From an uncultured Acidobacteriota bacterium (GTDB taxonomy: Bacteria; Acidobacteriota; Vicinamibacteria; Vicinamibacterales; SCN-69-37): DNA of 64,000 bases. The stretch lies in NCBI GenBank assembly GCA_963738485.1, contig CAVTWK010000005.1:388690-452689 (forward strand), given 5' to 3'. The notes beneath the pieces are model-generated. The model made no database searches. It had not been told where the DNA came from and saw only the letters and a list, made by a program, of their open reading frames with translations. Of the stretch, positions 28,331-37,985 are shown piece by piece. The number at the start of each line of letters is the position of its first letter. Within the stretch, counting starts at the first letter, position 1. Position numbers and translations under genes: made by a program.

Positions 28331-29030
28331 AACAGACGGCGGACAGCCTACGGTGGACGGCTCACGGACGACGGCTCACGGGCTACGGCGGACAGGCTAC
28401 CGCCGACGGCCTACGGGCCACGGCTCACAGGCTACGGCAGACAGACGACGGCTCACCAGCTACGGCCTACGGCAAACAGGCTACAGACGACGGACGACGG
28501 ACGACGGGGGACGGCAGACAGAACACGGCTCACCGGCTACGGACGACGGCCAACAGGCTACGGACGACCGCCTACGGCCTACGGCCCACAGATACGGACG
28601 ACGGACCACCGCAGACGGGCTACGGTGGACGATCGCGGCTCACTGGCTACTGCCTACGGCTCACGGGCTACCGCAAACAGGTTACAGACGACGGACGACG
28701 GGAGACCGCAGGCCGGCTCCGGTGGACAGCAAACGGCTCACGGGCGACGGCAGACGGACGACGGCTCACGGGCTACTGCCGACAGAACACGGCAGACAGG
28801 CTACGGACGACGACGGACGACGGGAGACAGCCTACGGCGGACGGCTCACGGGCTACTGCGGACAGCAGACGGCTCACGGGCTACTGCCTCACGGCAAACA
28901 GGCTTCGGACGACGGACGACGGACGAAGGACGACAGGCTACCGGGGACTACGGCAGACGGGCCACGGCGGACGGGCTACGGCCTACGGCACACAGGGTAC
29001 GGACGGGAGACAGACGACCTGCGGTTCACG
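28331..29030. repeat. heptanucleotide array, ACGGNNN orientation, about 100 units
   Basis: It parses in register as acggcgg acagcct acggtgg acggctc acggacg acggctc acgggct acggcgg... with only occasional 1-nt register slips. Confidence 0.9.
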
Positions 29031-29039
29031 GCATAGGTG

Positions 29040-29160
29040 TGGACCTGGACGTCAGCTCCGGGACTTGCGCGAGCGTAGCGAAGCTGCGGGACTTCAGCGT
29101 CAGTTCCGGGACTTCTGCGAAGCCTGAGAAGTGAGGCGAAGCCCCCGGGACTTCTGTCCC
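29040..29160. repeat. GGGACTTC-core repeat cluster (4 units)
   Basis: ctccgggacttgcgcgagc..., gctgcgggacttcagcgtcag, ttccgggacttctgcgaagcc, cccccgggacttctg. It lies directly beside the big heptamer array. Confidence 0.75.
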
Positions 29161-30954
29161 TACACATCCAGCCCGATCGATCGCATGAGCGCCACGGCGT
29201 TGCTCGTCTGCACGACGCCGGGACGAAGGCGGTAATCGAATGTCATCACTCCGTCGCTGAACTGGTCTTCGAGGTGCATGTTCGTCGCCTTCTCGCCGAG
29301 TTGATCTGCGATGGCGCCGAGCGCCAGATCGTGGGTGGTGACGATGCCGACCGCGGCCTTCGCAATGAGGCCGGTGAGGAGCGCGGCAGCACCCTGGCGG
29401 CGATCGTGGGAGTTGGTGCCCGAGAGGATCTCGTCGAGCAGGAACAGCGCGTGCCCATCGTGCGCGTCCACCAGATCGACGATGGCCTTGAGGCGTGTGA
29501 TCTCTGCGTAGAACCGCGACTTGCCATCCGTGAGCGAGTCGTTCACGCGGATGGACGCGCCGATGGCCAGCCGCGTGAGCGTGAACGAGGAGGCCCGCAC
29601 CGGCGCACCCATCTGGGCCAGCACGACATTCAGCCCGAGGGCGCGCATCAGCGTGCTCTTGCCAGACATGTTGGATCCACTCACGACGAGCAGCTGCGGA
29701 TCGGCGCCGCGACCGCCGAGGCTGACGTCATTGGCGACCGCCGACCGCGGCAGCAGGGGATGGGCCATGCCCAGCGCCGCCACGTGGGCGGGGCCGTCAA
29801 CGATCGTCGGATAGACGTGATCCGGATGCTCAGCCGCGAAGGCCCCGAGCGCGAGGAGGGCGTCGAACTCGCCGATGACGTCGAGCCAGCGGGGCACGTC
29901 GGTTGAGAGCCGCGTGCGCCAGGCGTCGATGGCCAGCGCCATCTGCGTGCCCCAGAAGACGATGGCCGCCGGGATGGCCACGATGATGTTGCTGCGCGAG
30001 GCGAGGAGCGCGCCCAACTGGTCGAGTCGTCCGATCTCAGCGGACGCGGGACGATGCGTACGCGCCAGCGCTTCCCGCAGCGCCTGCAGCCGCGGGCTCG
30101 TGAAGTGCTCGTGTTCGACGACGCGCAGCAGCGAGGCGAAGAGATCGAGGTCATGGGCTGCTTCGTCCACCGTGCCGATGATGACGGACACGCGCGGGCG
30201 CAGGAACAGCACCCAGGCGATCTGGATCACGAGCAGCACCGCGACCGATCGCGCGAACCAGACCGGCAGGTCGCCGTAGTACCAGGCCGCGAACGACCGT
30301 GGGGAGCACCACGGCCGACGCGAGCGCCATCGCGACGCGCGGCCACGGACGCGCCAGGATCGGCGGGGCCGCGGCCCAGGTGCGGAGCCGCGCCGCGTCG
30401 ATGCCGGCGCGCGGCAGGCCGTCGCCGGCCACCGCCATCGCTTCGCGCAAGTCGTGTCGCGCGGTGAGCTCGCGAACGGCCGCCTGCCGCTCCAGCAACT
30501 GGGCCGGGTCGGCCGGCGCAAGCAGCCAGCGTGTCAGCGTCTCCTGGCCCGCCTGCGTGCGCGTCGTCGCCAGCAGCTCAAACAGGCTGCCGCGGCCGAA
30601 GAGGTCGAGGTCCTCGGAGTAGAGATGCGCCTCGGGCCGGAAGCGCTCCCCGGGGTCCCCGTGGCCGATCCAGTCGTCGCCGATCCGGCGCAGGCCGCGC
30701 TCGTAATAGGTCGCGGCTGAACGCGCGCGGTCGCGCGCGGCGAGGACCCTGGCATGGTAGACCGCGATGACGATGAACGCCACGGCTGCGGCGAGGGCGA
30801 CCGGCAGGCCGCTCCAGCCTGAGATGAAGAGCGCGGCGCCCGCAAGGCCGACCAGCCCCAGGCGCAGGTACGCGACCTGGCCATGACGCCGATCCCGCTG
30901 GGCCGCCACCTGCCGAAGCTCGGCGAGCCGGGTTTGATATTGGCGCTCAATCAA
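29160..30954 (-). pseudogene. membrane-associated MutS-related protein (MutS domain V ATPase), frameshifted as assembled
   Basis: The C-terminus has Walker A SGSNMSGKSTLMRALG, Walker B LFLLDEILSGTN and TTHDL. The N-terminal half has TM helices (VAYLRLGLVGLAGAALFISGWSGLPVALAAAVAFIVIAVY). The join is near 30293. The start is either TTG 30954 or the upstream ATG 31068 inside a repeat element. Confidence 0.75.
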
Positions 30955-30955
30955 C

Positions 30956-30995
30956 GGGGTCGTACCTCGAGTATGGAAAACTCCATCGCCCTTCA
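30956..30995. repeat. half copy (single arm) of the GGGGTCGTACCTCGAG... palindromic element
   Basis: ggggtcgtacctcgagtatggaaaactcc matches the arm of the full elements at 31021 and 31125. It abuts the TTG 30954 start of the MutS-related gene. Confidence 0.7.
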
Positions 30996-31020
30996 CTCTG
31001 ACGCATTCGGCGAGTGTCCA

Positions 31021-31103
31021 GGGGGCGCACCTCGTCTGTGGAAAACTCCGGGGACCTCGATCACCCATGTCCCCGGAGTTTCCCACAGACGAGGTGCGAC
31101 CCC
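31021..31103. repeat. REP/MITE-like palindromic element, 35-nt arms, 13-nt loop
   Basis: GGGGGCGCACCTCGTCTGTGGAAAACTCCGGGGAC ctcgatcacccat GTCCCCGGAGTTTCCCACAGACGAGGTGCGACCCC, with two arm mismatches. Confidence 0.85.
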
Positions 31104-31124
31104 TTAGTCTGTGACAGTGTCTAG

Positions 31125-31207
31125 GGGGTCGTACCTCGAGTGTGGGAAACTCCGGGGACATGGCAGAACGAGGTCCCCGGAGTTTTCCACACTCGAGGTA
31201 CGACCCC
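31125..31207. repeat. REP/MITE-like palindromic element, 35-nt arms, 13-nt loop (opposite loop orientation)
   Basis: GGGGTCGTACCTCGAGTGTGGGAAACTCCGGGGAC atggcagaacgag GTCCCCGGAGTTTTCCACACTCGAGGTACGACCCC, with one G:T mismatch. Confidence 0.85.
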
Positions 31208-31927
31208 GTCGCCGCGATCTTCGATCTCGATGGCACCCTGACCGACAACATGCCCTGGCACGCACGCGCCTTCGAGGTCTTCATGCGCCGGCACGGGCTG
31301 CCTCCGCTGACGATGGAGCTACGGCGCCGGCTCGACGGCAAGCGCAACGACGAGATCATGCCGGTATTGTTCGGGCGCGATCTCACGGCCGACGAGCAGC
31401 GCGATCTCGCGCACGAAAAGGAGACGCTCTACCGCGAGACCGCCGCGGGCCAACTCGAGCCGATGCCCGGGTTGCTGGCGTTGCTCGACGCGCTCGAGGC
31501 CCGCGAGATCCCCGTCGCGGTCGCGACATCCGGCCCCCGTGAGAACGTCAGCTACTCCCTGCGCGAGATCGGTCTGGCCGATCGCATCACCGTCATCGTT
31601 CGTGGCGACGAGGTGCCGCACGGCAAGCCGGCACCGGACATCTATCTGCGCGCGGCTGAACTGCTCGGCGTCGATCCGGCGCGCTGCCTGGGCTTCGAGG
31701 ACGCCCCAGTCGGCGTCGAAGCCATCGTCCGCGCCGGTATGCGCTGCGTGGCCCTCACGACGTCCTTCGACGCGGCCGTCTTCTCTCAGGCGGCGGTGCC
31801 GCCGCACGTGATCTATCGCGACTTCGACGGTTATCTGGCGGCCGAAGGTGCGTGGCTACGGGCGCTCGCGGGCACGGCGCCCCTCACCAGCAGCGCGCGT
31901 CGCGCTTCCGAGAAGACGCTAGACTGA
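31160..31927 (+). CDS. HAD-superfamily hydrolase (beta-phosphoglucomutase-like)
   Basis: Motif I FDLDGTLTDN, motif II VATSG, and motifs III/IV GKPAPDIY...GFEDAPVGVEA. The only canonical in-frame start is ATG 31160, in the loop of a palindromic element. Confidence 0.85.
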   Translation: MAERGPRSFPHSRYDPVAAIFDLDGTLTDNMPWHARAFEVFMRRHGLPPLTMELRRRLDGKRNDEIMPVLFGRDLTADEQRDLAHEKETLYRETAAGQLEPMPGLLALLDALEAREIPVAVATSGPRENVSYSLREIGLADRITVIVRGDEVPHGKPAPDIYLRAAELLGVDPARCLGFEDAPVGVEAIVRAGMRCVALTTSFDAAVFSQAAVPPHVIYRDFDGYLAAEGAWLRALAGTAPLTSSARRASEKTLD

Positions 31928-35211: not shown

Positions 35212-35301
35212 GCCACTATCATACGGTCCGATGTAACTGCCGAACGCGGTCACCTCGCCGTTGCCCTCGGCGTCAAGCGGGTCGCCCCCTGCGTCGATCT
35301 T

Positions 35302-35347
35302 GGGGTCAGACCGGGGTCAGACCATGGTCTGACCCCGGTCTGACCCC
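35302..35347. repeat. perfect 46-bp palindrome (2x GGGGTCAGACC, AT centre, 2x GGTCTGACCCC)
   Basis: ggggtcagaccggggtcagaccatggtctgaccccggtctgacccc, in the divergent hicB / ECF sigma intergenic region. Confidence 0.85.
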
Positions 35348-35417
35348 AGCCGGATGACAACCGCGGTTTCCCAATACCTCCGAGGTATTTGCCCGAGGGG
35401 TTACCATCGCCGCGACC

Positions 35418-36008
35418 ATGACCGACGCGGACGCGACCTGGGACTCGACGCTCACGCTGCTGACCCGGGCGCGGTCTGGCGACCAGGATGCCCTCAGCGA
35501 TCTCTTCGCCCGCTATCTCCCTCTCCTGCGGCGCTGGGCGCGCGGCCGTCTGCCCCGGTGGGCCCGCGATGTGACCGACACGCAGGACCTTGTGCAGATC
35601 ACCTTGCTCCAGACGTTTACGAAGATGGACGGCTTCGAGCATCGAGGCGAAGGGGCATTTCAGGCGTACCTGCGGCAGGCGCTGATGAATCGGATTCGCG
35701 ATGAACTGCGGCGCGCCGGCCGTCGGCCGGCCCCGGCGCCGCTCGACGAGGAGGCGGCCGATCCCGGCCTCTCGCCGCTCGAGGCCGCGATCGGCGCCGA
35801 GGCCGTCGAGCGCTACGACGCCGCGCTCGAACGGTTGACGGCCGCCGAGCGCGAGCTCATCGTCGCGCGCGTCGAGCTGGGGCTGACCTACGCCGAGGTG
35901 GCCGCGGCCACAGGCAAGCCGTCACCGAACGCCGCCCGCATGGCCGTCGTGCGCGCGCTCATGAGACTGGCGGAGGAGATTCGTGACCCAGGCACCCTGG
36001 CTGAATGA
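35418..36008 (+). CDS. ECF-type RNA polymerase sigma factor
   Basis: Region 2 (DTQDLVQITLLQTFTKMDGFEHRGEGAFQAYLRQALMNRIRDELRR) and region 4 (ERELIVARVELGLTYAEVAAATGKPSPNAARMAVVRAL). Confidence 0.9.
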   Translation: MTDADATWDSTLTLLTRARSGDQDALSDLFARYLPLLRRWARGRLPRWARDVTDTQDLVQITLLQTFTKMDGFEHRGEGAFQAYLRQALMNRIRDELRRAGRRPAPAPLDEEAADPGLSPLEAAIGAEAVERYDAALERLTAAERELIVARVELGLTYAEVAAATGKPSPNAARMAVVRALMRLAEEIRDPGTLAE

Positions 36009-37913
36009 CATCGCGGTCGCCCTCGCCGATGGACGGCCCATCGACTGGGCCTCCATCGACGCGCGTCCGCTCACCGAGAGCGAGCGCGGGATGGTCGCGC
36101 GCTTCCGCCTCATCGAGCGTGTCTTGCAGGCGCACATCGGGCCGGATGGGGAGCTGTCGGTCGATTTGCCCAGCGCCCTTGCGACCGCGGACCGCATCGC
36201 AGCCGTGGCCGGGTCGGACGAGGCGGTCGGTGCCACCTGGGGGCCCCTGACGATCCTGGAGCGCATCGGCCGAGGCACCTACGGCGATGTGTATCGCGCG
36301 CACGACCCGCGTCTCGACCGGGTGGTGGCGTTGAAGCTGCTCCGGCGTCGAGAGTCCGGCGGGGACGCGCGCGAATCGGCGGTGATCGAGGAAGGGCGGC
36401 TGCTCGCCCGCGTCCAGCATCCGAACGTCGTCACCGTCCACGGCGCGGAACGGATCGACGGGCGCGTCGGTCTGTGGATGGAGTTTCTCGAAGGCCACAC
36501 GCTCGCCGAGGAAGTGCGCCTGGGCGGACCGCGGTCGGCGCGCGCAATTGCCCGGATCGGCCGCGACCTGTGCAGCGCGCTCACGGCGGTGCACCAGGCT
36601 GGCCTGCTTCACCATGACGTGAAGGCACAGAACGTGATGCGGACGCAGGACGGACGCATCGTCCTGACCGACTTCGGCGCGGGTCACGATTCGCGTGGGA
36701 ACGGCCACGGCGCGGCACCGCAGCCGCTCACCGGCACACCCGCTTATCTGGCGCCCGAGGTCCTCGCGGGCCAGCCCGCGACGGCGCAGAGCGAGGTCTA
36801 CAGCGTCGGCGTGCTGCTGTACCACCTGGCGACCGGGACATTTCCCGTGCGTGGACGCAGCCTGCAGGAGTTTCGCGACGCGCATGCGAGTGGCGCCAAC
36901 GTCGAGTTGCTCGCGGCGCGCGCCGACATGCCGCCGGCGCTCGTCGCCGCGATCACGCGATGCCTGGCGCCGGCGCCGGCAGATCGGTTTCAGAACATGG
37001 ACGATCTCGCCGATGCGCTCGCTGCGGGGGTCGAGGTGCCGGCGGCGCACGGCGTCGCGGCGGCGGCGATCCTCGCACCGCGCCGCGCGCGATTCACCTG
37101 GCGCGCGGCGGGGATCGTGCTGGCGTCGGTTGGACTGGCCGGCGCCGCAGGCTGGGCGGCGTCCTACACGCAGCCCGAGATCTTCGAATCAAGGGCTTTG
37201 ATCTACGTCACGCCTCAGCAGGTGTCGCCGGTCTATGTCGGCGCAGAGGGGACGCTGAGGATCGCCGATCGTGTGAACAGCCATCCGCAACAGGATAATG
37301 AGCCGAACGAGATTGGAGATGTTGATCACGGAGCTCAAGCTGTACGAGCCCGAGATGAGCGGGCGGCTGATGGAGGACCGGGTTGAGCGAATGCGTGGCG
37401 AGGTGTCGATAGGGCCGCCCGAGCCGGATCCTGGAAAATCCGTCGACGAGCTCGTTGAGGTGCGCTACATCTCGTCGGATGCGCGCACGGCACAGAAGGT
37501 GACCGACCGTGTGGCCGATCTTGTGATCAACGAGAGCGCCCGCGATCGCGAGAATGCCACCGCGGGAACGGATCAGTTCCTGGAGGCGACCCTGGAGGAA
37601 CTGTCACGCCGCCTCTCAGAGTACGAACAGAAGCTGCGCGTGGCAGGTCGGGGGCGGTCTCCAGATCATGCTTCGAGACCACGAGGAACTGCAGGCGCGC
37701 TACAAGAAGATGTTCGATATGCGGGAGGAAGCGAGGACACGGGCCAATCTGGAACGACGCCAGCTCGGCTCGCAGTTCCGGCTGATCGATGCGGCGCGCC
37801 TGCCCACCACGCCGATCAGCCCGAACCGGCCGCTCTATGCCGGCGCCGGTGCGCTCGGCGGGCTGTTCCTCGGGCTGGGGATCGTCGCGGTGCGCCGACG
37901 ACCTCGGAGGTAA
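35983..37913 (+). pseudogene. Hanks-type Ser/Thr protein kinase fused via TM helix to a Wzz/PCP-like (chain-length-determinant-like) ectodomain; distal part frameshifted
   Basis: Kinase motifs GRGTYGDVYRA, VALK, HHDVKAQNVM, LTDFG and GTPAYLAPE. TM helix FTWRAAGIVLASVGLAGAAGWAA. In the same frame follows YTQPEIFESRALIYVTPQQVSPVYV. SRTRLEMLITELKLYEP... and the PCP C-terminal motif LERRQLGSQFRLIDAARLPTTPISPNRPLYAGAGALGGLFLGLGIVAV are recovered by frame changes near 37281 and 37650. Confidence 0.7.
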
Positions 37914-37985
37914 TTCCTACGAAAACTGTAAGGCCACGCCGCGGCCTTACAGTTTTCGTAGGAATTACCTCCGAGGTGGTTTTCA
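37901..37985 (+). terminator. perfect 35-bp-stem hairpin + GGTTTT between convergent stops (terminator-like; also a repeat-family member)
   Basis: ACCTCGGAGGTAATTCCTACGAAAACTGTAAGGCC acgccgc GGCCTTACAGTTTTCGTAGGAATTACCTCCGAGGT, then ggttttc. The TAA stop of the kinase-PCP gene (37911-37913) lies inside the left arm. Confidence 0.6.

Follow-up and report, generated by a model that had tools for sequence, protein, structure and literature searches.

A palindromic repeat of Acidobacteriota as the probable 5' coding end of a HAD-family phosphatase gene

In the 64-kb window, by which I mean the whole stretch of acidobacterial DNA that was analysed, the gap between a MutS-related gene and a divergently oriented HAD-family phosphatase gene is made up of two 83-nt palindromes and a truncated third arm. 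The first palindrome, E1 (31021-31103), has its arms at 31021-31055 and 31069-31103 and its loop at 31056-31068, and the second, E2 (31125-31207), has its arms at 31125-31159 and 31173-31207 and its loop at 31160-31172; in both elements, arms of 35-36 nt each that are 94-97% complementary enclose 13 nt. The E2 loop reads ATGGCAGAACGAG on the plus strand and the E1 loop ATGGGTGATCGAG on the minus strand, and 10 of the 13 positions match once E1 is inverted. The original prediction, two full elements with loops in opposite orientations, is borne out by the complementarity of the arms and by this inverted match. Of the third arm only the outer 31 nt are present (30954-30984), abutting TTG 30954, the called start of the MutS-related gene; they are 97% complementary to the right arm of E2 (31179-31209), and nhmmer with an arm profile matched them at 30956-30984 (E = 2.6e-6). 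E1 and E2 are separated by a 21-nt spacer (31104-31124), in which a TGA (31112-31114) ends the HAD frame on its upstream side.

A 16-mer core of the arms occurs four times in the window against 0.49 occurrences expected, and a profile of the family described below detects exactly five arms there, those of E1 and E2 and the half-arm, and nothing else. Folded as RNA, the two elements form hairpins of -68 to -77 kcal/mol, E2 reaching -77.3 kcal/mol as plus strand RNA with 35 pairs, one of which is G-U. An assembly artefact as the source of the elements was considered and ruled out, as the family is present in many independent assemblies. Eight nucleotides to the left of E1 (AGTGTCCA, 31008-31020) and of E2 (AGTGTCTA, 31112-31124) match as direct repeats. 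These matching left flanks, together with loops that are alike only when one of them is inverted, suggest a tandem duplication, after which one loop may have flipped between its inverted arms.

The window contains other repeats as well. A different palindrome, with 41-nt arms that are 95% complementary and 1 nt between them, lies at 37898-37980 amid two converging open reading frames, and no copies of it were found in the fetched loci; it has the motif ACCTC(G)GAGGT in common with a short palindrome at 35375-35392. At 35301-35348, 70 nt upstream of an open reading frame that begins at 35418, a perfect palindrome of 24+24 nt consists of two GGGGTCAGACC units and their inverse, and this unit resembles the outer arm of E2, GGGGTCGTACC. 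Between the gene for a haem-binding protein and the MutS-related gene, about 650 nt (28336-28982) are occupied by degenerate tandem repeats with a base period of 7 nt (CGGACGA-like units) and further periods of 14, 21, 28, 35 and 49 nt, which contain long Arg/Thr/Gly-rich open reading frames in several frames. Rfam gave no match at gathering thresholds anywhere in the window; below threshold there were only generic long-hairpin (miRNA precursor) matches, all of them far below it.

The MutS-related gene lies on the minus strand in two frames. Its N-terminal part of 267 aa (30151-30954; Pfam MutS_III) is the open reading frame that the source calls from TTG 30954, and the database protein P0121 is identical over this span, the next closest database homolog having 51% identity. 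Its C-terminal part with MutS domain V (29160-30304; Pfam MutS_V and tblastn) is in another frame. The switch falls between 30304 and 30287, near a CCCC run, and tblastn with the full-length homologs P0151 and P0156 passes from frame -1 upstream to frame -2 downstream. The gene is either a pseudogene or affected by an indel error in the assembly. Several database homologs of the protein also end in tails that look off-frame.

As had been claimed, and as the reading frames confirm, the ATG at 31068 in the E1 loop (minus strand) is in frame with TTG 30954 with no stop between them, and the half-arm abuts that TTG. Both flanking genes could thus be thought to use loop ATGs, in which case the MutS-related protein would begin at 31068 with a 38-residue extension from element and spacer. 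Two further observations fit such a reading: in another copy of the family (L123, see below) reading in the same arm frame (RGTTP) runs through a full element and then a partial arm into a permease, and TTG 30954 leaves 4 residues before a conserved Tyr, which is fewer than in any homolog. However, the frame is open over about 480 nt up to the stop at 31431, overlapping the beginning of the HAD gene in antisense, and it offers further in-frame starts at 30996, 31086, 31161 and beyond; because a frame is so long open here in 68% GC DNA, the phase of the loop ATG is uninformative. In homologs the conserved EYxxRL motif is preceded by 10-19 residues, which agrees with GTG 30996 (18 residues) and not with ATG 31068 (42 residues), whereas TTG 30954, the start called by the source, gives 4. 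Moreover, the gene is frame-switched and may be a pseudogene, and with a best homolog at 51% identity it has no close ortholog. The in-frame loop ATG on this side is coincidental, and of the candidate starts it would be the least likely one; a loop-coded 5' end of the MutS-related gene, which had been part of the original prediction, is not borne out, and that both genes begin in loops appears quite improbable.

The HAD gene shows a different pattern. It lies on the plus strand (31160-31927), and encodes a beta-phosphoglucomutase-like protein of 255 aa with Pfam matches to Hydrolase and HAD_2 and with 5005 homologs in the protein database. From the stop at 31112 to the DLDGT motif, the only ATG, GTG or TTG codons in frame are GTG 31142 in the left arm and ATG 31160 in the loop of E2, and the right arm of E2 ends exactly five codons before the first catalytic Asp. 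It was correctly claimed, therefore, that this gene is devoid of a canonical start outside the repeat and that the arm ends five codons before the motif. The database protein P0001 (NCBI/ENA) is identical to the open reading frame from ATG 31160, which is the source's own gene call. The element-coded start and first 16 codons (MAERGPRSFPHSRYDP) occupy 31160-31207 on the plus strand, and a start at 31160 predicts the N-terminal peptide (M)AERGPRSFPHSR.

The native N-terminus in orthologs, proposed earlier as a means of judging this start, is MxxLxxFRPxAVVFDLDGT in 17 of them, with an invariant Pro whose codon, in the window, is formed by the final three bases of E2. Two loci with closer relatives, on contigs that both end inside the repeat, are particularly useful. 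In L121 (69% aa identity) an E1-like arm is followed by 19 nt and then by a native ATG. In L120 (77% aa identity) the order is E1 arm, E2 and HAD, element and gene are joined identically, and the loop ATG keeps its frame. The left arm of E2 is there without its outer 15 nt, the 21-nt spacer is gone as well, and the hairpin has decayed. Since the codon of L120 that corresponds to GTG 31142 lies in another frame, both lineages share a single start, the loop ATG, which alone is conserved in frame. The E2 arrangement is common to one close ortholog only, namely L120; the distant orthologs P0004 and P0009 are without the element and without a MutS-related neighbour, and they confirm the native N-terminus only. 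From these comparisons I infer that translation of the HAD gene would start at 31160. If the frame switch in the neighbouring gene is an assembly indel error, local frames call for caution, but the HAD frame is corroborated by L120.

A rival reading is that the insertion killed the gene. Its native start is gone, long accidental open reading frames are common in this 68% GC sequence, and the hairpin would make the start site inaccessible, so that the frame from the loop ATG could be a high-GC accident in a pseudogene. However, over the 210 codons of the core compared with L120, which has the same insertion, dN/dS is 0.12 at a dS of about 1.05, and the gene body is under purifying selection. 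No catalytic motif has been lost, the Pfam domain aligns over its full length, and AlphaFold, given the ortholog alignment, predicts a confident fold (mean pLDDT 88.7). The ATG and its frame are kept in L120, where the 16 element-coded codons have acquired neither an indel nor a stop despite 21% nucleotide divergence. A dead gene is accordingly highly improbable. The element-coded residues themselves, with dN 0.27 and dS 0.17 against L120, are free of protein-level constraint. In the model, residues 1-17 are coil, with pLDDT below 50 for residues 1-8, and strand beta-1 begins at residue 18.

The two elements and the half-arm belong to a family of interspersed palindromic repeats that occurs in soil Acidobacteriota, in Vicinamibacterales-like genomes. 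Scanning species-representative genomes with a 16-mer pattern gave mostly chance matches, with true copies in Acidobacteriota / Vicinamibacterales MAGs, at four loci only (L003, L084, L099 and L101), and in metagenome contigs a 19-mer picked out 41 stretches. The sample that resulted from MAG and metagenome loci comprises 28 unique full copies. A copy measures 83-100 nt, with mutually pairing arms of 35-40 nt around a variable loop of 12-27 nt. The outer terminus is (A)GGGG(A/T)CG in 28 of 28 copies and the inner arm, TGTGGAAAACTCCGGGGAC, is almost invariant, with variable positions in mid-arm; the loops show little conservation except for an A(T/C) beside one arm. Among the aligned arm cells, 97.1% are paired, against 31-56% in slid registers. 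Fourteen of the 36 pairs have changed on both sides, a degree of co-variation reached by none of 500 shuffles. The mismatches (G-T, A-C and transversions) are mixed within single copies and show no strand-specific signature of G-U versus A-C, so that pairing at the RNA level cannot be told apart from pairing at the DNA level.

The copies sit between tandem, convergent and divergent genes, and the genes beside the repeat clusters in four loci are ordinary housekeeping genes, not transposases. A stop codon is often found within a few nucleotides of the element edge or overlapping it, and the next start is often 0-30 nt away. GAGG in the outer arm was considered as a Shine-Dalgarno sequence for such downstream starts, and rejected since the spacing is too long in most copies. 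Direct repeats of 2-5 nt at offsets 0-3, which would point to a target-site duplication, were not above shuffled expectation among 30 copies, and the flanks merely extend the palindrome (A...T). In some places the repeat is extended in tandem by 1-3 extra units of arm and loop-like spacer, with a 53-54-nt or a 93-nt period, into small arrays (L138 2297-2490; L150 1830-2105; L158 1025-1165; L145 729-862). Full-text literature searches for the core sequence and for palindromic repeats of Acidobacteria found no paper. A word-indexed protein search for the element-coded peptides gave no candidates, and an exhaustive search of representative proteins gave one chance match to an unrelated repetitive protein.

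An ATG in the loop immediately after the arm is found in 3 of the 28 unique copies, and it is not a defining feature of the family. Nevertheless, by their reading frames five of the 28 sampled copies are read as protein: the one at the HAD gene and those in L123, L134, L145 and L124. In L123, the only in-frame starts upstream of an amino-acid permease domain are in the element (loop ATG 1202 and GTG 1226), and the Pfam permease model begins to align, with its position 1, seven residues upstream of the first ATG that lies beyond the element. In L134, the last two bases of the loop and the first base of the arm form an ATG in frame with a membrane protein resembling spermidine synthase, and the next start would remove its first transmembrane helix. 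Other copies contribute internal segments. A penicillin amidase gene contains a copy with an extra arm (L145, 729-862) that is read in its frame; the insert directly precedes the SNNW nucleophile, in the region that in this enzyme family is the excised spacer peptide, and a single Pfam stretch spans the whole amidase with the insert included. In L124 (5849-5938) a 90-nt copy, again in frame, forms part of the linker that joins a winged-helix (wHTH) domain to a transmembrane helix. Further in-frame copies inside conserved genes were seen in L144 and L153. On a reading of the consensus, the arms have a stop codon in no frame, and insertions in frame can therefore be survived.

These observations can be combined into a history of the locus, to which I assign a probability of roughly three in four: repeat-family copies came to lie here, E2 replaced the 5' end of the HAD gene, and what is seen today is the survivorship of a tolerated insertion, not a built-in device. 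E1 would be an old resident upstream of the HAD gene. E2 would have landed later on the 5' end of that gene, in the common ancestor of the source organism and the L120 organism, and would have replaced the native start together with about nine codons (MxxLxxFRP). That the gene survived would be owed to chance: the E2 loop contained an ATG in phase with it, and the right arm could be read through without a stop. The resulting protein would begin with MAERGPRSFPHSRYDP, an unconstrained and unstructured tail, and its native sequence would resume at the invariant Pro, before beta-1 and DxDGT. That a repeat has been exapted to code for the 5' end, as originally suggested, is thus well supported for the HAD gene by the lack of another start, the source's gene call, the retention in L120, the native start in L121, the purifying selection and the predicted unstructured tail, and it is not supported for the MutS-related gene. 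An event of this type would be the same as the insertions of RPEs or REPs in coding regions, and of a kind already known from other bacterial repeats.

The right arm of E1 (31067-31103 in the window) is identical at 36 of 37 positions in L120 (1-40) and at 20 of 22 in L121 (1-22), in comparisons in which 52-59% of the synonymous sites of the HAD gene differ and are saturated. This would point either to constraint on the arm or to homogenisation among copies of the family. E2 in the window is still a near-perfect palindrome, though its insertion appears to predate a dS of about 1, and its persistence requires selection on pairing, gene conversion or an independent insertion.

The start codon in the loop poses a problem for the expression of the gene. 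In a transcript that contains the complete hairpin, opening the region from -12 to +13 around ATG 31160 was computed to cost 32.8 kcal/mol, compared with 9.1 kcal/mol if the transcript begins with the ATG itself, 11.0 kcal/mol for L120 downstream of the E1 arm, and 7.2 and 10.3 kcal/mol in two native HAD orthologs. On reading the sequence, no Shine-Dalgarno-like sequence was seen at a normal distance from ATG 31160, and a scan of the region for promoter and terminator consensus sequences found nothing. Because the complete hairpin would bury the start site, transcripts may start inside E2 with a short leader or none, or translation may be weak, or some factor may open the hairpin. That the hairpin has decayed in L120 is consistent with relief from the burden of a buried start.

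Alternatively, translation may be gated by the structure, with a hairpin that displays or hides the start, in the manner of a thermometer or in dependence on a helicase or RNase III, and with the head-to-head pair co-regulating both genes. In favour of such a device, the start codon is enclosed by a 35-bp stem (-77 kcal/mol), with an opening cost of 32.8 kcal/mol where native orthologs need 7-10, and both the compensatory changes that maintain pairing across the family and the conservation of the E1 arm far above neutral expectation at this locus are in line with it. However, the mixture of mismatches within copies shows no strand-specific RNA signature, and the hairpin has decayed in L120, where the HAD gene is still under purifying selection. 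Most copies lie beside stop codons, between convergent genes or inside open reading frames, where gating of a start is inapplicable, the loop ATG follows the arm directly in just 3 of 28 copies, and the phasing on the MutS side is uninformative. I therefore regard gating as unlikely.

A somewhat different possibility is that the repeat acts as a portable expression module. The inner arm contains an extended -10-like motif, TGGGAAACT or TGGAAAACT, that ends 8 nt before the loop and matches the consensus weakly. With this motif facing outward, transcription could start from the loop and yield a leaderless mRNA beginning at the loop AUG, and E1 and E2 together could form a compact bidirectional unit of promoter and start for the divergent genes. 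If true, such a module would explain a start that is not buried, a dispensable Shine-Dalgarno sequence, and the 36/37 identity of the E1 arm where synonymous sites are saturated; the promoter scan found nothing here, and I consider it unlikely. The hairpin-buried start constitutes a concrete and testable question on the transcription and translation of such genes.

The locus provides a clean case, supported by an ortholog, of a repeat that would have donated a start codon and an N-terminus to a gene under purifying selection. It also records an apparently undescribed palindromic repeat family for the Acidobacteriota, a poorly studied phylum, and annotators of these genomes should expect element-coded N-termini and linkers.

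The family resembles the Rickettsia palindromic elements (RPEs) in its behaviour, as RPEs are small palindromes found in frame in genes, where they add a peptide at permissive places including N-termini and leave their hosts functional (PMC10969869, PMC3733652). Proteins of Rickettsia conorii with an N-terminal RPE-1 are expressed in vivo (PMC3733652). Residence in frame inside conserved and intact genes is likewise observed for the HAD gene, L145, L124, L123 and L134, and this is a likeness of behaviour and not of sequence family. RPEs occur in an unrelated phylum, whereas the present family belongs to Acidobacteriota and the genome is of high GC; they measure about 100-150 nt, against 83-100 nt here, and they add an internal segment, whereas E2 replaces the native start codon.

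The mycobacterial MIRUs offer a second parallel. These intercistronic repeats contain short open reading frames that overlap the stop and start codons of the flanking genes, much as many copies of the present family occupy the whole space from one gene's stop codon to the start of the next. However, MIRUs are direct tandem repeats and not palindromes.

REPs and REPINs are similar to the family in being GC-rich palindromes among housekeeping genes, often a few nucleotides from stop codons, and in forming head-to-head dimers and clusters with co-varying arms and without target-site duplications. REPINs are reported to persist vertically for long at orthologous sites, as E1 does here. The differences lie in their anatomy. 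Tagged REPs carry GTAG or CGTC at one terminus (PMC3733652), whereas the 28 copies of the present family are without a terminal tag, and CGTC occurs only in mid-arm, in E1 and in L120. The stem of a REP has 5-13 bp, with 8-9 bp as a second published value, and encloses a small loop (PMC3733652), compared with stems of 35-40 bp here, where the loops have 12-27 nt. In a REPIN, two REPs face each other in inverted orientation and each can fold by itself; a single arm of the present family has no such hairpin, as the only internal inverted repeat seen on inspection of the arm sequences was a TCGA/CTCGAG site of 4-6 nt, and the element is not a REP doublet. REPs and REPINs are mobilised by a RAYT (Y1 transposase), whose single-copy gene is flanked by the repeats, and none was among the neighbours of the repeat clusters in the four loci.

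Bacterial MITEs such as Correia/NEMIS and ERIC are, like the family, short, non-coding and multi-copy, mostly with long terminal inverted repeats and long RNA hairpins. The family has terminal inverted repeats, small size, many copies and no transposase gene. However, the target-site duplication of MITEs was not found in the 30 copies examined for it, and in contrast to MITEs almost the whole element is inverted repeat. The family thus stands outside the tagged REPs, as it has no tag and a 35-bp stem, and outside the classical MITEs, as it has no target-site duplication. In-frame fusions of MITEs with host open reading frames have been called not unusual in a 2024 review (PMC10969869), and many REPs have been reported at the amino-terminal ends of open reading frames (PMC3733652). 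It is with the RPEs and with these coding REPs that the behaviour of the family matches.
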